Shown: in pieces, positions 9,966 to 25,419 of the stretch
How the letters are laid out: every line of letters begins with the position of its first letter
Numbering within the stretch: position 1 is the first letter of the stretch
From: Mycobacteriales bacterium
GTDB taxonomy: Bacteria > Actinomycetota > Actinomycetes > BP-191
Assembly: GCA_036382875.1 (NCBI GenBank)
Contig: DASVPJ010000041.1
Span: 2,505-66,504, forward strand
Length of the DNA stretch: 64,000 nt
Reading direction: 5' to 3'
Notes under the pieces: model-generated
What the model saw: only the letters and a program-made list of their open reading frames with translations
Databases searched by the model: none
Told to the model about the DNA's origin: nothing
Made by a program: the position numbers and the translations under genes

Positions 9966-9966
9966 C

Positions 9967-10812
9967 GTGCCGACCGCCGAGGAGGTCAGGGACGCGCAGC
10001 GGGCCGCGTGGGCGGGCCTGTCCGCGGGCTGGGAGAAGTGGGACGCGGTCATCATGGACCAGCTCCGGCCGGTCACGACCGCGATCGTCGAACGCCTCGG
10101 CGTGGCCCCGGACCAGCACCACCTCGACGTCGCCGCGGGCACCGGCGAGCCGGGCCTGACCGTCGCGCGGCTGGCGCCGGAGGGGCGGGTCGTGCTGACC
10201 GACCTGTCGCCGGAGATGCTCGACGTCGCCGCCCGCCGCGCCCGCGCGCAGGGCGTCGCGAACGTCGAGACGGCCGTGTGCAGCGCCGACGACCTGCCGT
10301 TCGAGGACGCGTCGTTCGACAGCGTGTCGGTGCGGTTCGGGTTCATGTTCTTCCCGGACCTGGCCCCCGCGACGGCCGAGATCGCGCGGGTGCTCCGGCC
10401 CGGCGGCCGGCTCTGCGCGTCGGTCTGGGTCCGGCCCGAGGCCAACCCGTGGACGACGATCGCCATGCGCGCGATCGGCACCGAGGCGCTGGTCCCGCCG
10501 CCCGCGCCCGACGGGCCGAACATGTACCGCTGCGCCGCGCCCGGCGCCGTCGCCGCGCTCTACGAGGCCGCCGGGCTGCGCGACGTCGAGGAGTGGGACG
10601 TCGACGTCGCGCTCGTGACCCGTTCGGCCGAGGAGTACTGGGAAATGATCAGCGAGCACGTCTCGCTGGCCGTCGTGGCGCTCCAGCAGGTCGACGCGCC
10701 CGCGCGGGAACGGATCCGCGCGCGGGCCATCGCGGACGTCGCCGCGTTCGCCCAGGACGGCGAGGTGCGGGTGCCCGGCGCGGCGCGCTGCATCGCCGGT
10801 ACGAAGCCATGA
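9967..10812 (+). CDS. Class I SAM-dependent methyltransferase
   Basis: GTG start 1 nt after upstream stop; motif I (LDVAAGTGEPGL), DLSPEML, acidic/aromatic post-I regions (SADDLPFEDASFD). Confidence 0.8.
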   Translation: MPTAEEVRDAQRAAWAGLSAGWEKWDAVIMDQLRPVTTAIVERLGVAPDQHHLDVAAGTGEPGLTVARLAPEGRVVLTDLSPEMLDVAARRARAQGVANVETAVCSADDLPFEDASFDSVSVRFGFMFFPDLAPATAEIARVLRPGGRLCASVWVRPEANPWTTIAMRAIGTEALVPPPAPDGPNMYRCAAPGAVAALYEAAGLRDVEEWDVDVALVTRSAEEYWEMISEHVSLAVVALQQVDAPARERIRARAIADVAAFAQDGEVRVPGAARCIAGTKP

Positions 10813-10838
10813 CCGCCAGCACACCCAGGAGGCCCACC

Positions 10839-11015
10839 ATGCCCGTCCGCACCCTGCTCGCCGCGACGGCGCTCGCGCTCGTCGCGGTGCCGTTCGCCGG
10901 CCCGTCGCAGGCCGGCTGCACCAGCGACCTGCTCGGCACCCGCCCGCCGGACCCGCACAGCATCACCGCGACGTACATCCAGGCGGCGGCGGACTTCGTC
11001 GCCTGCGCGGTCTGA
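10839..11015 (+). CDS. Small secreted protein (59 aa, 2 Cys)
   Basis: ATG preceded by AGGAGG; GC3-rich; signal peptide MPVRTLLAATALALVAVPFAGPSQAG then 33-aa mature part. Confidence 0.45.
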   Translation: MPVRTLLAATALALVAVPFAGPSQAGCTSDLLGTRPPDPHSITATYIQAAADFVACAV

Positions 11016-11125
11016 TCCCGCCGTCCCGCGACCGGCTGCGCGAGCTGGGCTACGAGCTCGGCTCGCGCGCCGAGGGCGGCCTGTCCGAGGGCGCCTGGTT
11101 CGCCACCGCGCCCGACGGCGCGCCG

Positions 11126-11863
11126 GTGGTGCTCAAGTGGTTCCCGGACGAGGCCGCCGCCGATCGCTACGCCGCTTTGCTGCCCGCCCTGGACACGCTG
11201 CGTTCGCGCGGCGTCCCCGTGCCGGTCTACTCCGAGGTGCGCGTCGTCGACGGATGGACCGTGTCGGCGCAGCAGCGCCTGCCGGGGACGTCGCCGCGCA
11301 ACCCGCCGCCCGCGGTGGTGGCCCGGGTGTTCGAGTGCACCGCGCTGATGGCCGGGATCGAGTGCCCGCTGCCGACGCCCGACGGGCTGCCCTGGGGCGA
11401 GTCGGTCGTGCGCGCGCTCACCGCCGGCTCGGAGGAGTGGGCGCGGCACGAGCCGATGCGCGCCGGCGGGCCGCGCAGCGCCGCCGTGCTGGACCGGGTC
11501 CGCGCCGTCGGCGCCGAGGCCGACCCGGCGTGGTTCCCCTCGAACGGGCTCGTGCACCTCGACCTGCACACCGACAACGTCCTCGTCGGCGACCGCGGCA
11601 CGCTGACCGGGATCATCGACTGGGACGGCGCGTGCGCGGGCGACCCGCGCTTCGACCTCGTCCGGTTCGCGTTCGACCTCGACGGTCACGACCAGCCGGT
11701 CTGGGCGGACGTCGAGGCGACCGGCATCGAGCGACGGGTGCTGCTGGCCTACGCCGCGCACCACGCGCTGCGTTGCACGTCCTGGCAGATCCAGCAGCGC
11801 ACCGACGACGTGCCGCGCCAGCTCGCCCGCGCCGAGCGCGTCCTCGACCGGTACGGCGCCTAG
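11126..11863 (+). CDS. Aminoglycoside/small-molecule phosphotransferase (APH/protein-kinase-like) family protein; annotated from first in-frame GTG, true N-terminus probably upstream (non-canonical start or truncation)
   Basis: Brenner motif HLDLHTDNVLV and IIDWDGACAGDPRFD; conserved ATP-binding VLK at the very N-terminus; frame is open back to 11018 (RDRLRELGYELGSRAEGGLSEGAWFATAPDGAPVVLK) but contains no ATG/GTG/TTG. Confidence 0.65.
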   Translation: MVLKWFPDEAAADRYAALLPALDTLRSRGVPVPVYSEVRVVDGWTVSAQQRLPGTSPRNPPPAVVARVFECTALMAGIECPLPTPDGLPWGESVVRALTAGSEEWARHEPMRAGGPRSAAVLDRVRAVGAEADPAWFPSNGLVHLDLHTDNVLVGDRGTLTGIIDWDGACAGDPRFDLVRFAFDLDGHDQPVWADVEATGIERRVLLAYAAHHALRCTSWQIQQRTDDVPRQLARAERVLDRYGA

Positions 11864-11876
11864 CGGGTCGCGCCCG

Positions 11877-12308
11877 TCAGAGCGTGTACTCCGGCGCGTC
11901 GCTGACGGACCGGAAGCGGCGGGCCAGCACGGCGAGCAGCCGCTTCGCGACCGAGGGGTGGCGGTCGAGCAGGTCGCTGAACGCCCGCGGCTCGATCGCG
12001 AGCAGCTCCATGTCGGTGGCCGCCGTCACCGTCGCGGTGCGCGACGCGGTGTCCAGCAGCGCCATCTCGCCGACGCACTCGCCCGGCCCGAGCGTCGCCA
12101 CCGCGCGCCCCCTGACCGACACCTCCGCGGTGCCGTTCACGATGACGAAGCACTCCTGCCCGGGCGTGCCCTCCTTCGTCAGCACGGCGCCCTGCTCGAC
12201 CGACAGCTCGTCGACGAGGCCGGCGATGTCGGCGAGCTCCTTCGGCGTGCACAGCCGGAACAGCGCGACCTCGCGCAGGATCTCGACCTTGCGGCTCTTG
12301 GTACGCAC
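11877..12308 (-). CDS. Cyclic-nucleotide-binding (cNMP/Crp-like) domain protein
   Basis: GTG 12308 after GGAGGGG SD; cNMP-binding motifs (VEQGAVLTKEGTPGQECFVIVNGTAEV, GPGECVGEMALL...RTATVTA). Confidence 0.7.
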   Translation of the reverse strand: MRTKSRKVEILREVALFRLCTPKELADIAGLVDELSVEQGAVLTKEGTPGQECFVIVNGTAEVSVRGRAVATLGPGECVGEMALLDTASRTATVTAATDMELLAIEPRAFSDLLDRHPSVAKRLLAVLARRFRSVSDAPEYTL

Positions 12309-12455
12309 GGTGCCCCTCCAGGCGCGGCGACCCGGGCGGCCGCCGCCACCCGGCGCGCCGTACCGGACCCCTGCAAGTCCGGCGCCCATGCTGTGGCGCG
12401 CCCGGCGGCCCCGCAAGGCCTCGCCGCTGTGACGCTGCCCACAGGCGGCCGCGGC

Positions 12456-13178
12456 TCAGGCCGGGGGGAACAGGTGCCACGCGCCTTCCGACACGACCTC
12501 CACGGTCCCGTCCACCACGGTCAGCGCGGTCGCGTCGTCGATCGCGTAGGTCGGCACCGGCAGCCGGGCGGCCCACGCCCGCGCGTGGGCGGTCGACGCG
12601 TCGGGGTGGTCCGGGTGGTCCAGGTGCGGGATCACGGCGAAGTCCGCGAACCCCGCGCCCGCCGCCGTGACGAACGTCCTCGCGACGTCGCCGAACACCG
12701 CCTCCTCCGACGTCAGCACCGGCCCGCGGTGGGTCAGCGGCTCGGTGTACGTCTCCCCGAACGTCGCCGCCGTCGCGATCGACCCGGCGCTGACGCCGAC
12801 GTAGACCAGCCGGTCCAGCGACGGCAGCACCTCCGCCAGGCCCGACTCGCGCAGCCACCAGCTCAGGTAGACCGGGTCGCCGCCCCAGACCAGCAGCGCG
12901 TCCGCGGCCTCGACGCCCGGCAGCCAGACCTCCCGGTCGATGCTGGGCAGCGCGGTGAGCTCGAGCACGCCCAGGGACGCCCACCCGAGGTCGGTCAGCG
13001 GCGTCGCGACCTCGCCGCGGACCAGCCGGGCCGCCATCACCGGACCGACCCCGAACGGGTGGATCCCCGTCGGGACGACCAGTGCCGCGCACTCGCCGAC
13101 CGGCTTGCCGAGCAGTCTCGTCAGCGCGTCGCGGATGGTCGCGTTGCTGACGCCCGACGAGGTGAGAAGCAGCTTCAT
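12456..13178 (-). CDS. Peptidase S51 (dipeptidase E/cyanophycinase-like) family protein
   Basis: ATG 13178 (MKLLLTSSGVSN...); S51 pattern (VYVGVSAGSIA), class I glutamine-amidotransferase-like fold. Confidence 0.75.
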   Translation of the reverse strand: MKLLLTSSGVSNATIRDALTRLLGKPVGECAALVVPTGIHPFGVGPVMAARLVRGEVATPLTDLGWASLGVLELTALPSIDREVWLPGVEAADALLVWGGDPVYLSWWLRESGLAEVLPSLDRLVYVGVSAGSIATAATFGETYTEPLTHRGPVLTSEEAVFGDVARTFVTAAGAGFADFAVIPHLDHPDHPDASTAHARAWAARLPVPTYAIDDATALTVVDGTVEVVSEGAWHLFPPA

Positions 13179-13261
13179 GCGAGCACCATGCCGCACTCGG
13201 GCGCCCGGGCGCCCGGGCGCCCGAGTGCCCGAGTGGCGCGGGCGCCCGGGTGCGGCGGTGG

Positions 13262-14176
13262 CTAGGCGGGGCCGCGCAGCGTGACGTCGACCGCGCCGCC
13301 CACGCGCTCGCGGATCGTCGTGCACCGCGTGCCGGTCGGCACCTCGGTCACCTGCGTCGCGCCGGTCATGCCGAGGTCGCGCACCGCCTTGTCCACCAGC
13401 GCCCGCGTCGCGGCGAGCGGCCGGCACTGCCTCGCGATCTCGCGCAGCCGCGCGGCGAGCGCGACGTGCCCGCCCTGCTCGTCCGCCGGGTCGGTCCCGC
13501 GGGCCAGGAGCCAGACGGTGCGGGTGACCGGGTCGGCGCTGCCGGCGTCGGTGCACCGGCCCGCGTCGCGCGGCGTGACGGTCCACCCGACGAGGCCGGT
13601 GCGGGCGACCTCGGCGCGGGCGAACGCCACCGCCTCGGCCTGGGTGAAGCAGCGCGAGCCGAGCCCGGCGACGTAGTCGTCGAGCGACTCCTGCAGGTCG
13701 ATGAGCGCGACGTTCTGGCCCTGGCCCGCCGGGAGCGGCGTGCCGCCGGACGGCGCCGGGTCGGCGGCGGGCTGCACGAGGATGCCGCCGTGGCCGTTGT
13801 CGTACGCGACCAGCGGCGGCGCCGCGACGCCGAGGTCACGCGTCCACTGCGCCGCGCAGTCGGCGACGGGGTCGCCGGAGACGGCGGTGATGATCGACGC
13901 CGAGCCGCCGATCTGGCACTGCAGCGACGTGGTGTCGCGGGGGTCGCCGGCCCTGACGATCGCCCAGCCGATCGTCCCGCTGGCGGCCAGGGTGACCCCG
14001 GTGACGCCGGCCACGAGCTGCGCGCGGCGGCGACGGCGGGGGGAGGGAACAGGGGGTACGGGCATGGCCACGATCCGTTCGAGCAGGGCCTCGCGGGCCT
14101 CGGCACCGGTCGCTCGGGCCACCTGCTCGTCGGCCACGCGCGCCAGCCGGCGCACCGCGTCGTCGTGGGAGCTCAC
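13262..14176 (-). CDS. Anti-sigma factor (membrane-spanning), cognate to upstream ECF sigma
   Basis: GTG 14176 overlaps sigma gene stop (GTGA); one TM helix (AQLVAGVTGVTLAASGTIGWAIV); GC3-rich; Cys-containing extracytoplasmic domain. Confidence 0.65.
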   Translation of the reverse strand: MSSHDDAVRRLARVADEQVARATGAEAREALLERIVAMPVPPVPSPRRRRRAQLVAGVTGVTLAASGTIGWAIVRAGDPRDTTSLQCQIGGSASIITAVSGDPVADCAAQWTRDLGVAAPPLVAYDNGHGGILVQPAADPAPSGGTPLPAGQGQNVALIDLQESLDDYVAGLGSRCFTQAEAVAFARAEVARTGLVGWTVTPRDAGRCTDAGSADPVTRTVWLLARGTDPADEQGGHVALAARLREIARQCRPLAATRALVDKAVRDLGMTGATQVTEVPTGTRCTTIRERVGGAVDVTLRGPA

Positions 14177-14760
14177 AGGCCGTCCTCCGTCGTACCGGGA
14201 CGGGCGATCGCCCGTCGTGCCGTCGCATGTCCGGCCGCGGCCGTGCGTTGCACGTCCCGCCGCCGGGCCTCCGCGAAGCGGTGGCGGGCCCGGTGCAGCC
14301 GCACCCGGACGAGCGGGCGGCTCACGCCCAGCGCCACGGCGAGCTCCTCGTGCGTCAGCCCCTCCCACGCCACGAGCGCCAGCAGCTCGCGGTCGCTCTC
14401 GCGCAACGCCGCGAACGCCCGCGCCACCGAGCCGTCGGTCTCCGGCGCCGGCACCGCCTCGCCGAGGACGGCGAGCTCGGCCGCGAGGCGCTCGGTCAGC
14501 GCGGCGCGGCGGCGTTCGCCCCGGCGGTGGTTCGCCAGCGCGCGGCGCGCGACGCCGTAGACCCACGGCCGCAGCTCGTCGCCCGCGGGCGCGTCGTCGA
14601 AGCGACGCCACAGCGTCAGGAACGTCTCCGCCACGACCTCGGCGGCGTCCTGCGGGTCGGCGAGGCGGCGCGCGGCGTAGCCGCACACCGGCGCGTAGAG
14701 CGCGCGGTACGCGCTCTCGAACAGCTCGCGCCGTTCGTCGTCGTCCACCCAGCCGCCCAC
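14173..14760 (-). CDS. ECF (sigma-70 family group 4) RNA polymerase sigma factor
   Basis: Region 2 (ELFESAYRALYAPVCGYAARRLADPQDAAEVVAETFLTLWRRFDD) and region 4 (LALVAWEGLTHEELAVALGVSRPLVRVRLHRARHRF). Confidence 0.85.
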   Translation of the reverse strand: MGGWVDDDERRELFESAYRALYAPVCGYAARRLADPQDAAEVVAETFLTLWRRFDDAPAGDELRPWVYGVARRALANHRRGERRRAALTERLAAELAVLGEAVPAPETDGSVARAFAALRESDRELLALVAWEGLTHEELAVALGVSRPLVRVRLHRARHRFAEARRRDVQRTAAAGHATARRAIARPGTTEDGL

Positions 14761-14809
14761 CTGTCGTCGGACCCCGTCGCCAGGCGCATGTCCGGTCCGG
14801 GCGCCAGCG

Positions 14810-15661
14810 TTGCACCTCGGCCCCCGCGCCGCCCGGCGCCTCTACGCTGCGGCCGTGGACGCCGCCGTCGCGCAGCTCGCCGCCCTCGTCGCGCAGGGCA
14901 ACGCCGCCCTCGCCGGCGACGCCGAGGCCGGTGCGCGGGTCGAGGCCGGCTCGACGTTCCGGTACGTGCGGGCGGTGCGGTTCGAGCGGCAGGAGGGCTC
15001 GCCGCCCGTGACGACGCACGCGGAGGACAGCGCGGCGGGCTGGTTCCGGCAACTCGCGGAGTGGGGGGTGACGGCGCTCTGGCTCGACCCGCGGCCGCTC
15101 GCCGTCCCGACGCTCGCCCCGCACCTGCTCGCGGCGTGGACCAACGGCAGCCGCGTCTCGATCGTCACGGAGGGCGCGGAGCCGCGGCTGCGGTGGATCG
15201 CGTCGCGGCACGTCGACCGCGTGCCGACGGAGGCGGACGAGCGGGTGTGGGCGGTCCACTGCGTCGGGCGGCCCGACATCGCGGACCTCGCCCCGCGGCC
15301 GACGATCCCCGAGGCGGCGGCCGCGTTGGAGGCGCTCGTCCGGGCGGCGCGCGAGCTCGCCCGCCGGATGGACGAGACGTTCTGGGGCGGTCAGCTCGAA
15401 CGCGCCCTCGCCCGGCTCACCGACGACGACCCCGCGACGAAGCACCACGACGACGTCCTGCCGCCCTCGGCCGAGCTCGACCGCCGCCGGCTGTTCGCGG
15501 CGGCCGTCGGCGCGTACGTGTTCGGCGGCATGGGCACCTGGAACGACATCGGGCCGCCGCCCGACGACGAGGAGGCCAACGCCGAGTACGACCGGGTCAC
15601 GCCCGCCCTCTACGCCGCGGTCCTCGACGCCGTCGCCGCCGCGGTGAACCCGCGCCGGTGA
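14810..15661 (+). CDS. Hypothetical protein (start codon uncertain, TTG 14810 or downstream GTG)
   Basis: GC3-rich frame, non-repetitive composition; divergent from ECF sigma gene; no recognised motif. Confidence 0.5.
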   Translation: MHLGPRAARRLYAAAVDAAVAQLAALVAQGNAALAGDAEAGARVEAGSTFRYVRAVRFERQEGSPPVTTHAEDSAAGWFRQLAEWGVTALWLDPRPLAVPTLAPHLLAAWTNGSRVSIVTEGAEPRLRWIASRHVDRVPTEADERVWAVHCVGRPDIADLAPRPTIPEAAAALEALVRAARELARRMDETFWGGQLERALARLTDDDPATKHHDDVLPPSAELDRRRLFAAAVGAYVFGGMGTWNDIGPPPDDEEANAEYDRVTPALYAAVLDAVAAAVNPRR

Positions 15662-15774
15662 GCCCGTCGCGCGACGCCCCGACCGGCTGATCCGGCCCGG
15701 CGGGCGGGGGCGGCGCGCGTACCATGGACCGAGCCGCACGAGGCGGTGGTCGAGGTGCGGAGGGGGGCGGCCGC

Positions 15775-16227
15775 GTGTACAAGGCGATCGTTCGTTCGCT
15801 GATCCGGAAGGACGTCGCCGCGCTGGTCGCGGGCGACCCGGGCCCGGCGGCGGCGAGGTACGCCGACGACGCCGTCCTGAGGTTCCCAGGCCAGAACTCC
15901 TGGGCGATGCAGCACCGGGACACCCCGCCGTCGACCGAGGAGTTCGCGACGCACCGCGGCCGCGCCGAGATCGAGGCGTTCCTCGCCCGGTACACCGCCG
16001 AGGGCATGAAGATGCACGTCGACGACATCCTGGTGAACGGCTTCCCCTGGCACACCCGCGCGGCGGTGCGGGTCACCCATGTGGCGCCGGACCGGACCGA
16101 GACGCGCGGCGTCATGTTCATCACCTCCCGCTGGGGCAAGGTCGTCGCGCAGGAGGACTACGAGGACACGCAGGCCATCGCGGCCCGCGAAGCCGGTCGC
16201 ACTCCCTCGGCCGCCGGCGGCCGGTGA
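15775..16227 (+). CDS. SnoaL-like/NTF2-fold protein (first gene of terpenoid-type operon)
   Basis: GTG 15775 after GGAGGGGGG; NTF2-like pattern (FLARYTAEGMKMHVDDILVNGFPWHTRAAVRVTH...WGKVVAQEDYEDT); stop overlaps next gene's start. Confidence 0.6.
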   Translation: MYKAIVRSLIRKDVAALVAGDPGPAAARYADDAVLRFPGQNSWAMQHRDTPPSTEEFATHRGRAEIEAFLARYTAEGMKMHVDDILVNGFPWHTRAAVRVTHVAPDRTETRGVMFITSRWGKVVAQEDYEDTQAIAAREAGRTPSAAGGR

Positions 16228-17228
16228 CCGTCTTCGCCTCGCGCGAGGCGACGTTCTCCGGTCTCGACGAGCTCCCGCTCGCGCCCGTCGAGGACGAGCT
16301 CGCCCGGAGGCTGACGGCCGGCTCGGCGTTCGACGACGTGTACGCCCACGTGCTCGCGGTGCCGGGGAAGCGGCTGCGCGCCCGGCTCGTCCTCGGCTGC
16401 GCGGCGCTCGGCGAGGCGCCGCTCACCGCGTGGGACCGGCGGGACGCGGTCGAGCTCGCCGCCGTGATCGAGATGCTGCACGAGGCGTCGCTGATCCACG
16501 ACGACATCTGCGACGGCTCCACCGAACGCCGTGGCGCCCCGTCCGTCGCGGCGGCGTTCGGCGTCGGCCGCGCGGCCCGCGCCGGGTTCCACCTGGCGGG
16601 GGAGGCCCTGCGGCTGTGCGCCGACGTCCTCGACCGCAGCGACACGCTGCGCCGCATCACGCCGTCGAGCCGGCGCGTGGGCGACGGCGGGCTCGGGGCG
16701 CTGTCGTTCGGCCAGCTCCTCGAGACCGTGGCGCCGACCGGTGACGTCGCGTCGTCCCGGCGCCACTACGGCAAGGTCGCGCGGGCGAAGACCGGCACGA
16801 TGTTCCGGCTGGCCTGCGAGATGGGCGCGGCCGTGGCGCGGTGCGGTGACGCCGAGCGCGCGGCGCTGCGGACGTTCGCGGACCGGCTCGCCGTCGCGTA
16901 CCAGATCGTCGACGACGTGCGCGACGTCGAGGGCGCCGCGACGCTCGGCAAGCGGCGCGGCACCGACGCGTCCCGCCGTACGTTGTCGTGGCCGATCATC
17001 GAGTGGCTCGCGACCTCGCCCACGGCGCGCGATCGCTGGGCGGCGGCCGACGTCGCCCCCGTCGCGTTGTGCGACGACGTCACCGCGTCCGGCGCGACCG
17101 TCCGGGCCCGGCGCGAGGCGGCGCGCGTCGTCGGGGAAGCCGTCGACGCGCTGCGCGTGCTGCGGCCGTCCGCGGCCACCCGCGCCCTGGCCGACCTCGC
17201 CACGCGGACCGTCGGGGACGGACGGTGA
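16224..17228 (+). CDS. Polyprenyl diphosphate synthase (trans-isoprenyl diphosphate synthase)
   Basis: First Asp-rich motif LIHDDICDGSTERRG, second QIVDDVRD; GTG start in GTGA overlap with upstream gene. Confidence 0.85.
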   Translation: MTVFASREATFSGLDELPLAPVEDELARRLTAGSAFDDVYAHVLAVPGKRLRARLVLGCAALGEAPLTAWDRRDAVELAAVIEMLHEASLIHDDICDGSTERRGAPSVAAAFGVGRAARAGFHLAGEALRLCADVLDRSDTLRRITPSSRRVGDGGLGALSFGQLLETVAPTGDVASSRRHYGKVARAKTGTMFRLACEMGAAVARCGDAERAALRTFADRLAVAYQIVDDVRDVEGAATLGKRRGTDASRRTLSWPIIEWLATSPTARDRWAAADVAPVALCDDVTASGATVRARREAARVVGEAVDALRVLRPSAATRALADLATRTVGDGR

Positions 17229-18457
17229 CCGCCGACGCGCTCGTGCGGGCGGCGTTGCTGGCCCGTGGCAGCGTTGCGCTGCGCGCGGCCCCGCCCGTCG
17301 AGCGGGTGCTCCGCGCGCGGTCACCGCGCGCGCTCGCCCGGGCCGCCCTCGTGCCCGCGGGGCGGAACCTCGGCATGGCGATCGCGATGCTGCCGGCCGG
17401 CCAGCGGCACGAGGCCACCGCGGCGTTCCTGGCCTGCCGGGTGCTCGACGCGTTCGAGGACCTCGGCCCCGACCCGGTGGCCGGCATCCACGCCGCGGCG
17501 CGCTACCTCACCGGCTCGTCACCGGCCATGCCCGCCGCCGGCACGCTGCGCGCGAGCCGGCCGTCCGAGCACCTCGACCGCGCGCTCGCCGTCCGCATCG
17601 ACCTCGTACGCGCGCTCGTCACCTCGCTCGACGCCGACCGCGGGCGGCGCGTCGAACGCCTCGTCGCCGACGTCGCCGCCGCGATGGCCGCGCACGCCGG
17701 CCGGCAGGAGCGGCGCGCGTACGGCGGCGACGTCCTCGGCCGCGCCGTCGCGTACGCCGGCGAGGTCGTCACCGACGAGGCCGGCGACGACGGTCCGGCC
17801 GACCGCGGCGTGCACCGCGCCGTCGGCTACCTGCTGCAGCTCGCCAACGACCTCCGCGACGACACCCGCGCGCCGTACGGCGCGGACTCCGCCGAGGAGC
17901 TGCGCTACGTCGTCTTCCTGTCGTCGCTGACCGGGTCGCTCGCCGCGCTGGACCTCGTCAGGTCGCTCCACCGCCGGGCCGCGAGCTGCGGCGGCCGCGT
18001 CGCGGTCGCCGCGATGATGCTGCACACGACCGCGTACTTCTGCCGTGCCGCCGGTGTGCGGCCGCCCGTCCCGCGCCGCGCGCGGCTCCTGCGCGCCGTG
18101 CTGGCCGCGCGCGGCGAGCGGCCGTTCGAGCGGCTCTGCCGCCGCGTCGAGGTCGCCGCCGACGCCTGCCTCAACCGCACCGTCACCGCGGCCGGCGCCG
18201 GCGACGACCTCGTGCTGTTCACGGCACCCCGCGGCACGACCGGGCGGGGCGTCGCCGCGCTGGCCGTCGACGCGGCCACCCACCTCATGGCGCCGCTGCC
18301 CGCCGGCCCGTTGCGCGGCCCGCTGCCGCCCGCGCAGGTGCGGGCCATGATGCTCGCCGACCACGTCGTACTCGACGCCGTCGAGCCGACGGACGACGGC
18401 GACACCGGCGACCTGCGCGAGCTCGCCGACCTCCTGCAGCGGGCGGCGGCGTCGTGA
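17225..18457 (+). CDS. Squalene/phytoene synthase family (head-to-head isoprenoid synthase-like) protein
   Basis: GTGA-coupled start; class-1 isoprenoid synthase fold signatures with atypical first motif (FLACRVLDAFEDLG) and second motif YLLQLANDLRDD. Confidence 0.6.
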   Translation: MTADALVRAALLARGSVALRAAPPVERVLRARSPRALARAALVPAGRNLGMAIAMLPAGQRHEATAAFLACRVLDAFEDLGPDPVAGIHAAARYLTGSSPAMPAAGTLRASRPSEHLDRALAVRIDLVRALVTSLDADRGRRVERLVADVAAAMAAHAGRQERRAYGGDVLGRAVAYAGEVVTDEAGDDGPADRGVHRAVGYLLQLANDLRDDTRAPYGADSAEELRYVVFLSSLTGSLAALDLVRSLHRRAASCGGRVAVAAMMLHTTAYFCRAAGVRPPVPRRARLLRAVLAARGERPFERLCRRVEVAADACLNRTVTAAGAGDDLVLFTAPRGTTGRGVAALAVDAATHLMAPLPAGPLRGPLPPAQVRAMMLADHVVLDAVEPTDDGDTGDLRELADLLQRAAAS

Positions 18458-19470
18458 CCGCCGTCACCGACGTCCGCCCCGCTCCGCCGGCGGTCCCGCG
18501 CGCGTTCCCGCGCCTCGAACGCCTCGCCGAGCGCGTGCTGCGCGTCGAGCGCGGCGCCAACGTGTTCCCGATCGGCCACGTGCTCTGCTACGTCGCGCTG
18601 CTCGCGTCGTGCCTCAGCCCGTTCGGCCCCCGCGCCTGGTGGACCGCCGCGCCGGCGATCGTGCTGCTGACGTTGCTGAACTACTCGGCCACCGTCGGGG
18701 TGCTGCACATGCACGCGCACCGCCCGCTGTTCGTGTCCAGGCTGCCGAACCGGCTCGCCGACCTGGTCTGCTGCTTCCCGTGCATGCTCAGCGCCACCGA
18801 GATGCGCGTCATGCACGTGTCGCACCACCACCGGTTCGACAACGGCCCGCGCGACGTCACCTCCACGGTCGGCTACGAGACCGGCGGCCGCGCGGTCTGG
18901 TACTGGCTGCGCTTCCCGTGGCGCGTGAAGGCCGCCTGCGTGGACGAGATCCTGCGGCGCGCGGACTCACCGGCGCGGCGTACGCGGCGGCGGCAGCTCC
19001 TGTTCGACGAGGCGGTCGTCATCGGCACGGTCACCGCGCTCACCGTCGCGTGGCCGTACCCGATGCTGGCGTTCTACTGGCTGCCGTTCGTGCTGACGTT
19101 GCTGACGAGCGGCTACTTCGCCTGGCTGACGCACGCGCCGGCCACCGGGCGGGCCGGCGACAGCGCCTCGATCAACACCGTCGGCAACGTCCTCAACTTC
19201 TTCGTGTTCAACCAGGGCTTCCACAGCGTCCACCACCGGTACCCGGGGATCCACTGGACCGAGATCCCGGACAAGCTCGCCATCCTGCTCGACGTGGACG
19301 ACGACGTGGTCGTGTCGTACTGGGTGACGCTCGACACCGCGTGGCGCATCGCGGCGCCGGAGCGCTTCCGCGAGCCGGAGTTCGGCGCGGCGTGGAAGCG
19401 GCGCCTCGCCGCGCGGCTCGCGACCGGCTCGTGCCGATCGAGGCTGCTGCCGTACTTCGTCAAGGTGTAA
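18454..19470 (+). CDS. Membrane fatty-acid desaturase/carotenoid ketolase-hydroxylase family di-iron enzyme
   Basis: GTGA-coupled start; three His boxes (HMHAHR, HVSHHHRF, HSVHHRYPGIHW) and several TM helices. Confidence 0.8.
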   Translation: MTAVTDVRPAPPAVPRAFPRLERLAERVLRVERGANVFPIGHVLCYVALLASCLSPFGPRAWWTAAPAIVLLTLLNYSATVGVLHMHAHRPLFVSRLPNRLADLVCCFPCMLSATEMRVMHVSHHHRFDNGPRDVTSTVGYETGGRAVWYWLRFPWRVKAACVDEILRRADSPARRTRRRQLLFDEAVVIGTVTALTVAWPYPMLAFYWLPFVLTLLTSGYFAWLTHAPATGRAGDSASINTVGNVLNFFVFNQGFHSVHHRYPGIHWTEIPDKLAILLDVDDDVVVSYWVTLDTAWRIAAPERFREPEFGAAWKRRLAARLATGSCRSRLLPYFVKV

Positions 19471-19555
19471 CGCGGCGCGCGCGTGCACCGCAGCGGGGTG
19501 GGGGAGGACACTCCGTGCGACCTGCCCGACCCGACCCCGCGAAGGTGACCAGACG

Positions 19556-19735
19556 ATGAAGAAGACGCTGCGGCTGTCCCGCGAGGAGCTTCGCGAGCTC
19601 ACCGCCCCCGAGCTCCAGGACGTGCAGGGTGGCACCCACCCGTTGATCACCGACGGCCACCACTGCTTCGGCACGACGCTCTGCGCCGGCCTCTCGTTGC
19701 CGACCGCCTGCGGCGTGCTCACCATCGACTGCTGA
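19556..19735 (+). CDS. RiPP-like precursor peptide (59 aa): leader MKKTLRLSREELRELTAPELQDVQGG plus Cys/Thr/Ser-rich core
   Basis: Not in ORF track (59 aa). ATG with AAGGTGA SD 7 nt upstream; 57 of 59 codons G/C-ending; class II lanthipeptide-like ELxxL leader ending GG; core THPLITDGHHCFGTTLCAGLSLPTACGVLTIDC has 4 Cys. Confidence 0.5.
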   Translation: MKKTLRLSREELRELTAPELQDVQGGTHPLITDGHHCFGTTLCAGLSLPTACGVLTIDC

Positions 19736-19766
19736 CGGGGCAGCGGACCTACGGTCTTGGCGCACG

Positions 19767-19851
19767 GCGGAGAGGGACAGGCCCGAGCGGGAAGCCCAGG
19801 TCAGACGGGTGCGCCGCCAGGGACTTGAACCCCGAACCCGCGGATTAAGAG
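19767..19851. repeat. attL: 85-bp direct repeat of tRNA-Lys 3' half plus 3' flank
   Basis: Near-identical (2 differences) to 28985..29070, which overlaps the intact tRNA-Lys; covers anticodon loop to acceptor 3' end plus about 35 bp. Confidence 0.7.
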
Positions 19852-20158
19852 GCAGGGCTACTACGTCCGAGGCAGTCCGGGGTAGTTGGTGACACCCCGC
19901 CTGACCTGCGACTTTGCGGAAGGCCGTGTCGTCGCAGTTCGGCACATCCGGGCTTGTCCGGCACCGCTTGTTATCGCAGTGTTAGCGCACTCATCGCGAT
20001 CGCGGGCGGCGCGGCCCGGGTCGCCCAACCGCGCCACAGGTCGTCGCGGCGCCGCGTGCGTAGGGTGTGCCCTTGAGGGTGAGCGGGTGGCGCATCAACG
20101 CGTATCATGCGATGACGAGGTGGCTTCTCGTTACGGGTAGTGCGATCGGGGGCAAGCC

Positions 20159-20533
20159 TTGTTCAGAAAAAAGAGCCGCGCTCGTGAGGCGTCGGGCGAG
20201 TCTTTACGAACCATTGAAAAGCTTAACCCACTGTACTATGAGCGGGTACAGGGCCGGCTTCGTCTTTGGGACGCGCCGGATGCGTCCATCGAGAACGCTG
20301 CGACGAGCACGGCGAACGCGATCTTCAACGTGGCGATGAATTACTTTGGCCGACTCGGTGACGACCGCGCCGGGCGAGCCTTCGCTCTACAGTTCGAAAA
20401 ACGTGTCGCGGGCGACCTGACCGTCGCGGACAAGATGATCGATCAACTCATCTCGTACGACGCTGACACTCAGGAGTTTCTTACGACTCTGCTCCAGCGC
20501 TTGGAGGATCTCGCAGGTCGCCCGCCCACCTAG
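20159..20533 (+). CDS. Hypothetical protein (island cargo)
   Basis: TTG start; mixed AT-ending codons typical of the island; 124 aa; no recognised domain. Confidence 0.4.
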   Translation: MFRKKSRAREASGESLRTIEKLNPLYYERVQGRLRLWDAPDASIENAATSTANAIFNVAMNYFGRLGDDRAGRAFALQFEKRVAGDLTVADKMIDQLISYDADTQEFLTTLLQRLEDLAGRPPT

Positions 20534-20878
20534 ATCGCACGCTGTTCTCGTGCTCCGTTGAATACCAACCTGAGCGAACGTGCCCGCGGCGAGCTCGGTG
20601 TCGATGCGGCATTAAACGCCAGCGCCTCGGCGGATCGTCTCACCGGCCTGCGGCTGAACGTCCTGCCGCTCGCGTCGCGCCAGTCGTACAGGTAGCCGCG
20701 GCCGCGCGGCGGATGCGAGGCTGGAGAGCGCGGGGTCGTGCCATCGACGGGTCGTCTCGTCGTCGGGCGACGACGTGAAGATGAGGATGCGGCGCACCCG
20801 CCGCAGGTCCGGCCGGGTTGCCAGCAATCCGCCACATCCGGCCTCAACGCGATGTTGAACGCCCCGCTCCGGGGAGCA

Positions 20879-20996
20879 AGCCGCAGGTCAGACGGGTGCG
20901 CCGCCAGGGACTTGAACCCTGGATCCGCGGACTTAAAGGCAGGGCAACTTCCGAGGCAGTCCGGGGCAGTTGGTGACAACCGCCTGACCTGCGGTT
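20879..20996. repeat. Degenerate internal copy of the att/tRNA-3' repeat plus conserved island-internal flank
   Basis: Shares caggtcagacgggtgcgccgccagggacttgaaccc with the att repeats and, after a diverged stretch, gcagggc...gaggcagtccgggg.agttggtgaca..cgcctgacctgcg with the island side of attL (19852..19910). Confidence 0.5.
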
Positions 20997-21481
20997 TGCC
21001 CCGTCGGATGTCGCCGTATAGCACGAACTCCGGATACGTCTGTTGGCCATGCTAGCGCTGCTAGCACGCGAGGACGTGGTGCCGACCAGTCGACTCATCA
21101 GGGCGGCGCCTCAGCAACTGCCTCGACCGCCGACGAAGACGCACCTCTGGCGTGCCGGCCCGTTCAGTCGTCCCGCCGACCCGCGCCCCAGGTCAGTCAA
21201 TCTACGATCTTGAGGCTGCTGAAGCGCATCATGTACAACGGTCGCTGTCTTCGTCGTTTGCCGCTCCTGCTCAAGGGCGCTGCGTCGATGCCGCGACGCC
21301 GAGAGGACGGATCCCTCACCGCCCACGGTCTCGACGTCGCGTGTACCACTGACGACGCCTCCCACGCCGAGGGGGCTTACCGCCCTCGCCCTCCGCATGG
21401 ACCTGGGACGAGGCGATCAACGGACTGACAATGAAGTCGGAACATTCCGAGCATTGAGCCTGACTGAAGTAGGCTCGGGCC

Positions 21482-22588
21482 ATGGCACTTCGTCCTACCA
21501 TCTTCATCGGATCCTCTGCGGAGGGAGAGCTCCTGGCGAACCAGCTTCAACTCAACCTCAGCAGGACGTGTCGACCTGATGTCTGGAGCCAGGGAGTCGT
21601 TCGCGTCGGCTCGGCAACACTGCAAAGTCTCGTAGACGCAAGTCATCGGTACGACTTTGCTGCCCTCCTTCTTACACCGGACGACGTTATAGAACAGCAT
21701 GGCGAAACTGGATTCGCTCCGCGTGACAATGTGATCTTTGAAGCCGGTCTGTTTGTCGGTGCGCTGGGCCCGGGCCGCACGTTCTTGGTGCATTGCCGTG
21801 AAGATGTGCTCAACCTCCCATCTGATCTCCTCGGAGTCACCATGGCCACGTATGACCGGCCAAGCCCAGGGGACAACTTGGAAGCGATCATGGGTCCGCC
21901 CGCCACGAAGATCATGAACGCGATTCAGCATGTCGAGTCAACAGGAGTTGGCCCGAACTACCTGACTGCCTTCAGTGCGTTGGCGCGCGAAGTCCCAAGG
22001 GATGAGCTAGTCAGGATCATCACCGAAGCTAGCGCGCCCAGTGATATGCGCTCGCCGCTTAGTCCCGTAGCCTTGCGGACCTTGGAGCGAGAACTTGAGT
22101 CCAGGGGCCACAGTCGGGATCGCGAGCTTACCCGCGACGATCTGCGGCCAGAGATCCGTAAATATAATGATATTCGAGAGACGACGATTCCGGGTGTTAG
22201 CCGAACGAACAGGCTGGAGGAAACCCTCGGAGAGATAGAGTATAAAGCCCTACGCCAGAAATATCCGGCAAGTCTCACCGCGGAACTACTGGACGGCGCC
22301 GATGGGGACAGAGTGGCAGGCCTCGTTCTAGCTCGCGTAAGGCCCGACAAAGAGAACTTCGACGCAGTGTTGCGCATAATAGAGACGCCTCGGTCGAACT
22401 ATGAGCATGCCAAGGCCATTGAGACAATGATACAGATGAAGAAGTCAGACAAACTCACAGATGACCAGGTGCGGGCTGCCCGACGCGTTGCTGAAGAATT
22501 GCTCGACAAGCGTGTGACGCTAATAGTGGACGGCGACCCCAGCCGGGTTGTGTTGGTCGAAACACTTGCGAGAGAGCTCAATCGGTGA
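21482..22588 (+). CDS. TIR-like (PF10137/COG4271-type) nucleotide-binding domain protein with uncharacterised helical C-terminal domain
   Basis: N-terminal signature (TIFIGSSAEG...DFAALLLTPDDVIEQHG...RDNVIFEAGLFVGALGPGRTFLV...LPSDLLGV); AT-ending codons; C-terminal 230 aa with no recognised motif. Confidence 0.7.
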   Translation: MALRPTIFIGSSAEGELLANQLQLNLSRTCRPDVWSQGVVRVGSATLQSLVDASHRYDFAALLLTPDDVIEQHGETGFAPRDNVIFEAGLFVGALGPGRTFLVHCREDVLNLPSDLLGVTMATYDRPSPGDNLEAIMGPPATKIMNAIQHVESTGVGPNYLTAFSALAREVPRDELVRIITEASAPSDMRSPLSPVALRTLERELESRGHSRDRELTRDDLRPEIRKYNDIRETTIPGVSRTNRLEETLGEIEYKALRQKYPASLTAELLDGADGDRVAGLVLARVRPDKENFDAVLRIIETPRSNYEHAKAIETMIQMKKSDKLTDDQVRAARRVAEELLDKRVTLIVDGDPSRVVLVETLARELNR

Positions 22589-22778
22589 GAGCGCCGCGGC
22601 GCCGCTCTGCGACAATCGGAACGAGCGTGCCGCCACGATGCAATCAGGGCGCGCCCATCGGTGCTGTACCTAGCGAGTTCATGCAGGCCGGTTGGTTGCC
22701 CGGAAGATGTCGGTACTGTGGCTGAAAGCGGACGACACACTCGAACGCGCGGACCCTCACCCCGGGTCCGGATGACTC

Positions 22779-23843
22779 TCAGCGGCTAGCAGCTAGCCGG
22801 TCACGCATCTCACGTGCGGCCGTCTTCCAGTCCTGCTCCGCCGACACGCTGAGGCACCGATCGAGGAGCCGCCGGGCGACATCGTTGAGCTCGGCCTCAC
22901 GAATCGCTTCCTCGACAGCGATGAGCGCCATGGCAAGCCGACGTCGCGTGCCCTCCTCGGCGAGCGTCAGATGCTCGAACGCGCGAACGGCGCCGGCGCG
23001 GTCGAGCTGGACCAACGCTGGCACGAGCCTTCGTGGGATGCCCACGTCATCGGCATTATTGGCGACCTCGACGGCGCGGATCAGGAACTCGTCCCCGACG
23101 GGTGCGCGTACCAACCGGGGCAACGTGTCGAACGCAAGCCGTTGAACACCTTGCTCTGATGATTCGAGCAGCGCAAAGACGTCGTCCTCGTCTAACCCGC
23201 CCCGATCGGCGAGCAGCCGGATCGCGCGCTTGCGCGGCCCCTTGTCCTCAAGCTCGTCGGTCGCCAGCTCGACCAGTCGCTGGACGTCGGATGCCGACAG
23301 TTTGTCGGCATCGGCGACGGTGAGACGCAGCGCCGTTCGCACGTTGCGCTGCTGCACCAGCCGCATGCCGGCCTCGAAGAGGCCGCCGAGCTGCTCGCGG
23401 ATCTTCTGCTCGAAGGTCGCCGGAGTGAATGGTGCGACGGTCAACTGCCAGTCGTACTCGAGGGACCGGAGCACCTGGGTCATTCTACGGTCGCTCGGGT
23501 CGGTCACCCCGTCCAGGCTGCGCAGCTCGTTAAGGATGCGGTATTTCGCGTACGTGGCGTCCAGGCAGAGCACGAGGAACGGCGTGCCCGCTTGCAGCGC
23601 CGTGTCGAGTTCGGTGCGCCAGGTGAGGTCGCCGTAGTCCTCCACGACGACGAAGACGCAGATGTCCGCGTCGAGGACCGACGCACGGGAGTTGGCCTCG
23701 AACCGCGCGCCGACTGCGTTGCTGTACGTGATCGCGCCCTGGAGGTAGGTCATTGGCTGGCCGCCGACGTCACGAACGACCCGTTCGAAGTGTTCGAGTA
23801 CATTGCGCGTGTCCGCTGCGCCGCAGAGCATGATTCGGAGCAT
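22779..23843 (-). CDS. DUF4062-domain protein with C-terminal HEAT/ARM-like repeats
   Basis: ATG 23843 after GGGGG SD; DUF4062-like N-terminus (ADICVFVVVEDYGDLTWRTELDTALQAGTPFLVLCLD); helical repeats in C-terminal half; convergent with the TIR-like gene, with hairpin terminators between. Confidence 0.65.
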   Translation of the reverse strand: MLRIMLCGAADTRNVLEHFERVVRDVGGQPMTYLQGAITYSNAVGARFEANSRASVLDADICVFVVVEDYGDLTWRTELDTALQAGTPFLVLCLDATYAKYRILNELRSLDGVTDPSDRRMTQVLRSLEYDWQLTVAPFTPATFEQKIREQLGGLFEAGMRLVQQRNVRTALRLTVADADKLSASDVQRLVELATDELEDKGPRKRAIRLLADRGGLDEDDVFALLESSEQGVQRLAFDTLPRLVRAPVGDEFLIRAVEVANNADDVGIPRRLVPALVQLDRAGAVRAFEHLTLAEEGTRRRLAMALIAVEEAIREAELNDVARRLLDRCLSVSAEQDWKTAAREMRDRLAASR

Positions 23844-24225
23844 CTGACCCCCAACTGCTTCATCGTCCGAACGCACGTTACCGGCGACCGCGTTGGCGTG
23901 TCAGTGGGAGGATTGGCCCTCAGCCCTCAACCGCGTCGCGCGACGGCGGGTGCTAGCCGCTCGCGCCGACTCCCGCGCGGCCGAGCGACCGGATGCACTT
24001 AACGAGGTATCCCAACAGGCAACAATCGAGACATTGCCCTCTGCGCGGCGCGTACCATTCGGCACCTAGCGGCTGTGCGGCGAGCGCAGTGGCTCCCATA
24101 GTCGGACGGTGCAGAGGGTCCTATTACACCGACCTTGCTGCGGGTTCGCGACTTCGGATGCCGCCGGGCTTGCCTGCGGATCTGATTGCAGCAGGTGACT
24201 CATTAAGCGTCGGGTCGGCATAATG

Positions 24226-24504
24226 TTAGTCGTCGCACGCCTTGCGGATTGCGTCAACGAACGGCAGATCCTCGTCCTTCGTGTCGTCACTCAAAGACTC
24301 GAACGGCCGAATGGCGTCGTGTTCGCGGCCGCTTGACTCCATCCATGCCGCCCATGCGTCATGCACATCGGCGGCAGTTACGGCCGCGCCCTTTGCGCGC
24401 GCGAGTACGGCATACATCAGGAACAGACTTGTTGATTCTGCTGGAATAAGAGCTTCCGGTACTTGTGAGCGGATCTTGTCCGCGAGGTCTGTGATGTAGC
24501 TCAT
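24226..24504 (-). CDS. Small hypothetical protein (92 aa), third gene of TIR operon
   Basis: ATG overlaps stop of upstream membrane-protein gene (ATGA); acidic C-terminus; no recognised domain. Confidence 0.5.
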   Translation of the reverse strand: MSYITDLADKIRSQVPEALIPAESTSLFLMYAVLARAKGAAVTAADVHDAWAAWMESSGREHDAIRPFESLSDDTKDEDLPFVDAIRKACDD

Positions 24505-24998
24505 CGGACAACCAGATACGTTGCCAGCACGAGATAGACTACCCCGAATGCGACCGGCGTCACTTGCTCGATGAAGCCGAGCTCGGCGTAGCGATCGCGC
24601 CACTTGAGCTTGGTCGGAGGGTCGGTGTTCGGCCTCAAGACGACCCACTCGTCCACGAACGGACGCACCGTGAAGTGGTCCTGTTCGATGCGGTTGATCA
24701 CGGTGAACTTCGCTGAATTCAACTTCCGATAACTCCGGAGAAGGAGCCACCAGGCGCCGGCGAGAAGTACTCCAGCAAAGGCTGCAACCACGAGAACGAA
24801 CCGGTCAGGTGCGGCCTGGCCGCCGCTGTCGCTGACCCTTGTGGCAAAGAGCGCAAGACCGGCAACAAGGCCGGTCTGCAAGGTCAGAAAGAAGCTGTTC
24901 GCCGAGGCTCGCCTTGCGGATACCCGATCCGCCATCTCAACCGCAAGCGAGTACAACGCGAGAACTGTGGCCTCGGAACTAGCGGCTGGGACAGTCAT
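24501..24998 (-). CDS. Multi-TM membrane protein (about 165 aa), candidate effector (SLATT-like?) of TIR operon
   Basis: ATG 24998 one nt after TIR gene stop (alternative GTG 25013); TM helices FFLTLQTGLVAGLALFA, FVLVVAAFAGVLLAGAWWLLL, VTPVAFGVVYLVLATYLVV; AT-ending codons. Confidence 0.6.
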   Translation of the reverse strand: MTVPAASSEATVLALYSLAVEMADRVSARRASANSFFLTLQTGLVAGLALFATRVSDSGGQAAPDRFVLVVAAFAGVLLAGAWWLLLRSYRKLNSAKFTVINRIEQDHFTVRPFVDEWVVLRPNTDPPTKLKWRDRYAELGFIEQVTPVAFGVVYLVLATYLVVR

Positions 24999-24999
24999 C

Positions 25000-25419
25000 T
25001 CAGCGCGAGCCACCGATAAGTAGCTTCAGATTGTCCCAGGTCCAGTTATACATCTTGTCGGTTGACTTGGCGGAGGTGGGGCGCGTGCAGGTTCCGGTGG
25101 CCCGCCCACGTAGCAGGAAGTACGACTTGCCTTCCTCCTGGGCAATCGATACTTCAGCGCTGACTCCGGTGGCGGTGTGCGTGTGGTGACCGCACAGCAC
25201 TACAACCTGGTCGACGCCCTTGATCCGTCTCCGCGCGCGCGACCGCCAATCAGGCGACGCTTCTTTGATGGACATGTCAACTACCTCGAATGGCGAATCC
25301 GAGTTCTTTGCCTGGCCAATCAGCAAGGTCTTGAGATCACTGTCGTTGTCATAGTCGAAACTTACAAACACCCGTGTCTTCGCCACGCCTCTCCCCTGTC
25401 TGGTGCTGTACATACCCAT
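25000..25419 (-). CDS. TIR-domain protein, ThsB-like (DUF1863/MTH538 TIR-like)
   Basis: RVFVSFDYDNDSD...VVVLCGHHTHTATGVSAEVSIAQEEGKSYFLL matches ThsB/DUF1863 pattern (vFfSFhy.D...LIG..T..s.WV..EI); AT-ending codons; start ATG 25419 (TTG 25443 also possible). Confidence 0.7.
   Translation of the reverse strand: MGMYSTRQGRGVAKTRVFVSFDYDNDSDLKTLLIGQAKNSDSPFEVVDMSIKEASPDWRSRARRRIKGVDQVVVLCGHHTHTATGVSAEVSIAQEEGKSYFLLRGRATGTCTRPTSAKSTDKMYNWTWDNLKLLIGGSR

Follow-up and report, generated by a model that had tools for sequence, protein, structure and literature searches.

A translationally coupled four-gene locus with a diverged squalene-synthase-fold enzyme in a Mycobacteriales genome: a candidate terpenoid-lipid pathway

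Here we describe a compact locus of four genes from a Mycobacteriales bacterium (GenBank assembly GCA_036382875.1), located on a stretch of 64,000 nucleotides of contig DASVPJ010000041.1 (positions 2,505 to 66,504 of the forward strand), which was analysed as a whole and is referred to below as the window. The locus encodes, in this order, an NTF2/SnoaL-like protein (g1), a trans-prenyl diphosphate synthase (g2), a very diverged enzyme of the squalene synthase (SQS) fold (g3, hereafter X) and a membrane di-iron enzyme of the FA_desaturase family (g4), and is read here as a candidate terpenoid-lipid pathway built around X.

The original prediction, made from the letters of the DNA, had placed four plus-strand genes at 15775-19470 with pairwise GTGA overlaps; the coordinates proved exact, and all three junctions can be read directly from the sequence (Table 1). 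The third-position GC of g1-g4 is 0.95-0.98, the whole window being about 75% G+C, and the open reading frames (ORFs) antisense to them show the mirror-image GC pattern expected of non-coding frames. The outer boundaries of the block are independently supported, since NCBI holds proteins 100% identical to g1 (150 amino acids, aa) and g4 (338 aa) from a Mycobacteriales bacterium metagenome-assembled genome (MAG). The coupling is not due to chance, because a 4-bp NTGA overlap joins the prenyl synthase gene to X in 82 of the 86 related loci compared (the window is counted among these 86, here and in all neighbourhood counts below), and because the SnoaL-synthase-X-desaturase order recurs with all three 4-bp overlaps in two of them, L096 and L097. 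Promoter and terminator scans of 15300-19900 returned no match.

The family or fold first proposed for each product (SnoaL-like, polyprenyl synthase, squalene/phytoene synthase fold, three-His-box enzyme) was borne out by Pfam, AlphaFold modelling and Foldseek. The g2 product scored 151 bits against Pfam polyprenyl_synt (PF00348, cut-off 27) and carries two Asp-rich motifs, DDICD and DDVRD. It fell under all 16 NCBIfam chain-length equivalog cut-offs; its best PDB sequence matches were octaprenyl, decaprenyl and geranylgeranyl diphosphate (GGPP) synthases, and its neighbours ranged from C15 (farnesyl) to C50. Neither the PDB neighbours nor the residues that precede the first DDxxD point to a single chain length.

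The g4 product scored 116 bits against Pfam FA_desaturase (PF00487, cut-off 29.7); it has three His boxes (HMHAH, HVSHHH and HSVHH), and its hydrophobic segments span aa 35-58, 65-86 and 182-200. Its sole named similarities were to the CrtR, GntB and CrtW equivalogs, weak at 14-21 bits against cut-offs of 350-475; for CrtW the score was 13.8 bits (cut-off 350) and for CrtR 21.3 bits (cut-off 475). From these features g4 is classed as a three-His-box membrane di-iron oxygenase or desaturase.

For g1, the match to Pfam SnoaL_2 (PF12680) was 29.1 bits with a cut-off of 27, and the AlphaFold (AF2) model, with a predicted local distance difference test (pLDDT) score of 86, has the NTF2-like alpha+beta cone fold. 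The Foldseek neighbours of this model were putative NTF2-like isomerases, limonene-1,2-epoxide hydrolases, ketosteroid isomerase (KSI) and polyketide cyclases, so that the modelled fold does not separate isomerase, epoxide hydrolase and cyclase roles. In NCBI the identical protein carries the name nuclear transport factor 2 family protein [Mycobacteriales bacterium]. Homologues that share 50-62% identity occur as single genes next to a TetR regulator, a context that is uninformative on role, and g1 is best viewed, from these comparisons, as a recent, lineage-specific accessory gene outside the conserved core.

The squalene-synthase-fold enzyme X and its relatives

X has a size of about 44 kDa and found no match by itself in Pfam, NCBIfam (E<=0.1) or PDB sequences; a 31-sequence profile of its family likewise gave no useful match when PDB sequences were searched. 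Among 5.8 billion proteins, 48 relatives were found, one 83% identical to X and the others at 46% or below. The named ones were all designated 'hypothetical protein', and those with an organism name came from Nocardia and a few Mycobacterium species. The AF2 model of X, for which the alignment of these 48 relatives served as input, is all-helical with a pLDDT of 90.8, and the top 40 chains retrieved with it from the PDB by Foldseek were squalene synthases from Trypanosoma cruzi, human and Aspergillus flavus (probability 1.00, best template modelling score 0.62), at 12-15% identity, with a CrtM-like enzyme ranking next.

Homology to the Pfam family SQS_PSY was established transitively, through the family profile and then a three-tier profile, not from a single sequence. 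An exhaustive search of 1.84 billion representatives with the family profile returned 182 relatives of X in three tiers: the close family of about 420 aa; a tier of 450-550 aa, of which the best sampled protein passes the SQS_PSY threshold and three more lie at about the threshold; and a tier of about 360 aa, which are clear SQS_PSY members at 56-79 bits. SQS_PSY members reached in this way scored 52-79 bits. The combined three-tier profile matched T. cruzi SQS (9e-15), human SQS (1e-11), CrtM (7e-8) and phytoene synthase (PSY; 4e-6). On homology and fold together, X thus genuinely belongs to the superfamily of head-to-head prenyl synthases, although it is very diverged; its closest affinity is to the SQS type. 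X matched none of the NCBIfam equivalogs (squalene synthase, HpnC, HpnD, CrtB) at E<=0.1, and the relatives that score in SQS_PSY reached 16-39 bits against these equivalogs, with cut-offs of 250-550; none is an equivalog. Judged by these hidden Markov model cut-offs, X stands outside every characterised clade; firm clustering inside one, the outcome that would have counted against the original prediction, did not occur.

Alignments with human SQS, the reference sequence of which was checked and is identical to PDB 3vj8 over residues 31-369, pair R47 and R72 of X with R52 and R77, the acidic residues D75, E78 and D79 with D80, E83 and D84, Y166 with Y171, and Q205, N208, R211 and D212 with Q212, N215, R218 and D219. 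The residues that X keeps are those that serve diphosphate and Mg2+ binding and the first half-reaction in human SQS. They are invariant or more than 90% conserved across 31 family members. The first Asp-rich motif (DxxED or DxxxD after a conserved Arg) was detected in 75 of the 86 loci. Y166 does not vary, and its counterpart in SQS_PSY relatives and in T. cruzi SQS is the first Tyr of YCHYV(A/I)G. The Q..N..RD core lies within QLANDLRDDTRA.

The second motif reads N208-D-L-R-D212-D-T-R-A216 (NDLRDDTRA) in the window, which does not fit the N...D...D pattern of SQS. In the close family the motif is NDLRDxExxxY, with A, V, E or T at the final acidic position, and the form DDTR(A/E)P is unique to the window X and its nearest relative; more distant relatives, including both of the fusion proteins described below, keep the full DxxxD. 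The DAFED of the first motif had been singled out as atypical, which it is not, as it fits the DxxED of eukaryotic SQS (DTLED in human). The true anomalies of X are rather its eroded second motif, its divergence past Pfam detection and some 130 additional helical residues at the C terminus, a region that bears a conserved (A/G/S)D motif (MLADHV in the window), occurs in the 450-550-aa tier as well and is lacking in the 360-aa tier.

A pattern scan detected X in 106 of 185,579 species genomes, with no protein more than 44% identical to the window X. The named genera among the 106 were Nocardia, Mycobacterium/Mycolicibacterium and Rhodococcus, and the others were uncultured Actinomycetota or Mycobacteriales MAGs. 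In all 86 loci a prenyl synthase gene lies directly 5' of X. A di-iron enzyme gene adjoins this pair in 70 loci, 65 of which have a gene for an NnrU-like membrane protein as well, and in 16 the synthase-X pair is alone. An extra DXS gene is convergent on X in both of the pair-only loci inspected (L044, 11476-13572, and L082, 11186-13150, each on the minus strand); just 5' in L044, fragments of an IS-type transposase and an integrase were seen. A synthase-X-desaturase-NnrU module, with an X of 545 aa, was also observed on an ENA contig of 43.8% G+C (L092), so that the module extends beyond the high-G+C actinobacteria.

A mevalonate operon follows directly 3' in 38 of the 86 loci, nearly all of them from Nocardia. 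The mevalonate genes across loci were MK, MDD, PMK, IDI2 and HMGR, with HMGS only in the gene table of Nocardia farcinica; in that species (L001/L002, 7081-17266) the synthase-X-desaturase-NnrU cassette is succeeded by the mevalonate operon on the same strand, and the Nocardia cassette may be a dedicated consumer of the mevalonate pathway. MmpL genes occur in the flank of 12 loci, directly 3' in the slow growers M. simulans, M. szulgai, M. angelicum and M. gastri, and an MMPL gene also adjoins the module in L090 and L091. The 450-550-aa tier has the same triad together with a Rieske oxygenase, a CMAS-type methyltransferase, a radical SAM protein, Metal_hydrol and MMPL among its tailoring genes, and one contig of this tier is of 44% G+C.

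In two lineages X is naturally fused to an FA_desaturase domain (P0071, 801 aa; P0125, 781 aa). An overlapping prenyl synthase gene lies 5' of the fusion gene, and on the 3' side there are genes for a Rieske oxygenase, a CMAS-type methyltransferase, GST or MMPL (L086, L090 and L091). These fusions provide strong evidence that the product of X is passed directly to the di-iron enzyme at the membrane.

A proposed pathway and its alternatives

These findings point to a dedicated terpenoid-lipid module in which X is a catalytic enzyme using prenyl diphosphate, an interpretation of the sequences and models that we hold with considerable confidence. The narrower proposal, that the locus is a compact, translationally coupled terpenoid-lipid pathway in which head-to-head condensation of prenyl diphosphates is the most likely reaction of X, is put forward with more reserve, as a moderately probable account.

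In the proposed pathway, g2 would make an all-trans prenyl diphosphate, probably of C20 or longer. X would bind it via Mg2+ on D75, E78 and D79 and on N208 and D212, perhaps aided by D209 and D213, and would ionise it with Y166 acting as in the first half-reaction of SQS; X would then most likely join two prenyl units head-to-head, like SQS, CrtM and PSY, to give a long hydrocarbon released at the membrane. There g4 would desaturate or hydroxylate the product, and g1 would perform or assist an isomerisation, an epoxide-opening or a binding/carrier step. In most relatives the accessory position of g1 would be held by the NnrU-like membrane protein, precursors would come from the dedicated mevalonate operon or the extra DXS, and export would be by an MmpL-type transporter. 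The NnrU family includes Z-ISO, which isomerises the central double bond made by phytoene synthase. By analogy, the NnrU-family partner would fit a product with a central double bond, and is taken here as a lead.

It is conceivable, though we are doubtful, that the envelope of Nocardia, Rhodococcus and certain slow-growing mycobacteria contains a terpenoid lipid of a class not described before, made by the module. An example would be a long head-to-head hydrocarbon on which a membrane di-iron enzyme would carry out the desaturation or oxygenation, in place of a flavin adenine dinucleotide (FAD)-dependent enzyme of the CrtI/PDS type, and which an NnrU-like protein would isomerise or reduce and MmpL would export.

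Several points weigh against head-to-head condensation. X itself does not reach the threshold of Pfam SQS_PSY (PF00494; no match at E<=0.1), and a profile-versus-single-sequence comparison of the X family with human SQS by hhalign was weak (E 0.011). The second Asp-rich motif lacks its final acidic residue in the window, a position that is variable in the close family, and given this erosion a two-substrate active site of the SQS type is not guaranteed. The A/S at positions -5/-4 before the first DDxxD of g2 is a feature common to long-chain synthases and type III GGPP synthases, and the motif thus fits more than one chain length.

The degenerate second motif of the close family would also suit a single-substrate enzyme, which would act in the way of a class I terpene synthase, a diphosphate lyase or a cyclase and ionise one prenyl diphosphate from g2 to a linear or cyclic hydrocarbon or alcohol, for the di-iron enzyme to oxidise. 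As we read the sequence, N208-D209-x-x-D212 loosely resembles a metal site of the NSE/DTE type, and non-canonical terpene synthases encoded beside prenyl synthases are a recent discovery in Mycobacterium and Nocardia (PMC11234867). However, the full DxxxD is retained by the distant relatives in the same module, both fusions included, the structural and sequence neighbours of X are head-to-head synthases and not cyclases, the catalytic Tyr of SQS is invariant, and the motifs and sizes of the class ID/IE/IF terpene synthases do not match X; a single-substrate reaction is thus considered unlikely, without being negligible. Non-catalytic partnership with the prenyl synthase, by which X would control chain length or delivery to the membrane in the manner of the small subunits of heteromeric hexaprenyl/heptaprenyl synthases, would account for the tight synthase/X overlap, such coupling being typical of stoichiometric complexes, and for the all-helical isoprenoid-synthase superfold of X. 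Invariant SQS active-site residues are unexpected in a structural subunit, however, and the fusions join X to the di-iron enzyme and not to the synthase, which makes this a very improbable role.

The order of a prenyl synthase followed by a gene of the SQS/PSY fold mirrors crtE-crtB, and the locus might be an ordinary, diverged carotenoid or squalene set in which g2 is CrtE, X an orthologue of phytoene, dehydrosqualene or squalene synthase and g4 of the CrtW/CrtR type, the desaturase or cyclase being elsewhere in the genome. CrtR and CrtW are the sole named carotenoid similarities of g4, stronger in the fusion P0071, and the NnrU of relatives belongs to the Z-ISO family of carotenoid isomerases. 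Against this stand the failure of X to match any CrtB, CrtM, HpnC, HpnD or SQS equivalog and the distance from the cut-offs already given for its Pfam-reaching relatives and for g4. Among the major ORFs of the window, Pfam scans detected neither a phytoene desaturase nor a squalene-hopene, lycopene or terpene cyclase nor any other terpenoid gene, and no CrtI-type or cyclase gene was present in the gene tables of ten related loci; the marker genes being absent from both, the locus is not a standard crtE-B-I or hpnCDE-shc set, in agreement with the original prediction. Nocardia genomes, moreover, carry a separate, conserved crtE-crtB-crtI cluster (PMC7413640), and an ordinary set is accordingly judged quite improbable.

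A link to omega-cyclised menaquinone, typical of Nocardia, was also considered and set aside, as the cassette is also found in Mycobacterium and Rhodococcus and X is like diphosphate-ionising enzymes, not protonation-type cyclases.

The X family escapes current annotation, its relatives in the protein database being 'hypothetical protein' or nameless, and the synthase-X module is probably missed by rule-based mining of terpene clusters, because no Pfam or NCBIfam model of the family exists. The module is present in the clinically relevant N. farcinica, M. szulgai, M. riyadhense and M. simulans. Knowledge of the product could extend the known lipids of the Mycobacteriales envelope by a new terpenoid, uncover a di-iron route by which head-to-head terpenoids are modified and assign a function to the Nocardia mevalonate pathway; if the product is indeed an envelope lipid, it would explain this horizontally acquired operon. 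X also offers a natural experiment in the drift of an SQS active site under selection, the last Asp of motif 2 having been lost.

Surroundings of the window copy

The four-gene block of the window, with gene starts called differently, is also present in L003. L003, L096 and L097 are about 83% identical to the window in nucleotide sequence over 3.7 kb, and their block is flanked by genes for a UbiE-type methyltransferase and a cupin. The lineage of the window is without an NnrU gene. Removal of NnrU by the island 3' of g4 was considered and rejected, as the attachment repeats of the island are intact and the island-free L003, L096 and L097 are also without NnrU.

Compared with L003 and L096, the window has about 5 kb inserted (10649-15661) between the UbiE-type methyltransferase gene (9955-10812) and g1. 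The inserted segment ends with a 283-aa ORF, 113 nt before g1. On the 3' side of g4, a 59-aa ORF and an island of 9.2 kb take the place of the cupin segment. The 59-aa ORF has a coding-like composition, with a third-position GC of 0.95, and is preceded by the Shine-Dalgarno-like GAAGGTGA; its leader LSREELRELTAPELQDVQGG ends in a double glycine, and Cys and Thr are abundant in its core THPLITDGHHCFGTTLCAGLSLPTACGVLTIDC. The ORF resembles the precursor of a lanthipeptide or other ribosomally synthesised and post-translationally modified peptide (RiPP), and no modification enzyme for it was found among the window's major ORFs.

The island is integrated at tRNA-Lys(CTT) and is bounded by direct repeats of the 3' part of the tRNA (19769-19851 and 28985-29068, 96-98% identical), with a degenerate third copy at 20876-20938. 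Its G+C is 62-63% between 20 and 26 kb and about 71% between 26 and 29 kb, the remainder of the window having about 75%, and synteny with L003 resumes exactly at tRNA-Lys. The island encodes a protein with an N-terminal TIR effector domain of the CAP12/Pycsar type and, convergent with it, a 365-aa protein without a family match; the two may be a defence pair, with no recognisable cyclase nearby.

Table 1. Coordinates of the features described in the text (window numbering unless a related locus is named; aa, amino acids; nt, nucleotides)
Feature	Position (nt)	Strand	Remarks
Shine-Dalgarno-like GGAGGGGGG	15759-15767	+	7 nt 5' of the g1 GTG start; read from sequence
g1	15775-16227	+	GTG start, 150 aa, NTF2/SnoaL_2-like
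g1/g2 GTGA start/stop overlap	16224-16227	+	read from sequence; kept in L096 and L097
g2	16224-17228	+	GTG start, 334 aa, trans-prenyl diphosphate synthase
g2 first Asp-rich motif DDICD	16500-16514	+	aa 93-97
g2 second Asp-rich motif DDVRD	16911-16925	+	aa 230-234
g2/g3 GTGA start/stop overlap	17225-17228	+	read from sequence; NTGA version in 82/86 related loci
g3 (X)	17225-18457	+	GTG start, 410 aa, diverged squalene-synthase-fold enzyme
X first Asp-rich motif RVLDAFED	17438-17461	+	aa 72-79, R72-V-L-D75-A-F-E78-D79
X Tyr166 region	17717-17743	+	YxxxVxG segment of SQS
X QLANDLRDDTRA	17837-17872	+	Q..N..RD core region
X C-terminal motif MLADHV	18350-18367	+	
g3/g4 GTGA start/stop overlap	18454-18457	+	read from sequence; 4-bp overlap in 27 related loci
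g4	18454-19470	+	GTG start, 338 aa, membrane di-iron His-box enzyme (FA_desaturase family)
g4 His box HMHAH	18706-18720	+	
g4 His box HVSHHH	18814-18831	+	
g4 His box HSVHH	19222-19236	+	
X::FA_desaturase fusion genes	L086 2044-4449; L090 6049-8394; L091 6189-8534		801 and 781 aa
Insert genes: APH-family kinase; cNMP-binding protein (-); peptidase S51 (-)	within 10649-15661		
Anti-sigma-like ORF and ECF sigma factor	13262-14760	-	
283-aa ORF	14810-15661	+	weak bpX6 match
59-aa ORF	19556-19735	+	RiPP precursor-like
Integrative island	19769-29099		about 9.2 kb, at tRNA-Lys(CTT) 29025-29099 (-)
TIR effector protein	21482-22588	+	368 aa, N-terminal CAP12/Pycsar-type TIR domain; Pfam 90 bits, PADLOC TIR effector 129 bits, PycTIR 94 bits
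365-aa protein	22779-23876	-	no family match; convergent with TIR gene
Helix-turn-helix gene	25885-26334		in island
WhiB-like gene	26531-27028		in island
Tyrosine integrase	27403-28974		in island

Comparison with known systems

No paper on the X family or on the module was found in the open-access literature, and the comparison below is with systems that share its parts. Hypothetical proteins encoded beside trans-prenyl synthases in Mycobacterium and Nocardia have been identified through structure as class ID/IE/IF terpene synthases by Abe et al. 2024 (PMC11234867). These enzymes are class I cyclase-like, with D(N/D), ND and RXXKD motifs and sizes of 49-75 kDa (PMC11234867). X was rejected as a member of these classes on motifs, size and fold type, by the published descriptions (PMC11234867 and its supplement), since it is SQS-like, smaller at its 44 kDa, and carries other motifs.

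The CrtW and CrtR enzymes belong to the same Pfam family as g4, but the similarity of g4 to them is weak, and Z-ISO shares its family with the NnrU-like gene of the relatives, which the window is without. Both families, FA_desaturase and NnrU, are known to act on isoprenoid polyenes. CrtM and CrtB, with CrtE, belong to the superfamily of X and likewise combine a prenyl synthase with a head-to-head synthase in that order; they are farther from X than SQS is, however, and X has neither a CrtB equivalog match nor a CrtI-type desaturase as partner.

In the HpnC/HpnD/HpnE route, SQS chemistry is split over SQS_PSY paralogues and followed by a separate redox enzyme, an arrangement to which the X module may be likened. 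Hopanoid loci also use an MMPL-family exporter, HpnN. The X locus differs in having one SQS-like gene, a membrane di-iron redox partner instead of an FAD enzyme and no cyclase, and X and its relatives are far under the HpnC and HpnD cut-offs. A changed substrate length or outcome in enzymes of the SQS fold is described for the SSL-1, SSL-2 and SSL-3 enzymes and the lycopaoctaene synthase of Botryococcus (PMC4823828). Unlike X, the Botryococcus enzymes are eukaryotic, recognisable as SQS by sequence and without di-iron coupling.

Squalene synthase itself (human FDFT1, T. cruzi SQS; TIGR01559) is the best structural match of X and, among sequences of solved structures, the best match of the three-tier profile, and X has its R..LD..ED motif, catalytic Tyr and Q..N..RD core. 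X departs from it in its 12-15% identity, in matching neither the SQS equivalog nor Pfam SQS_PSY, in the loss of the last Asp of the second motif, in its different C-terminal region and in having a prenyl synthase of its own as a coupled partner throughout and, in most cases, a di-iron enzyme too. X is thus best described, from these comparisons, as an SQS-fold family with a new conserved set of partners.

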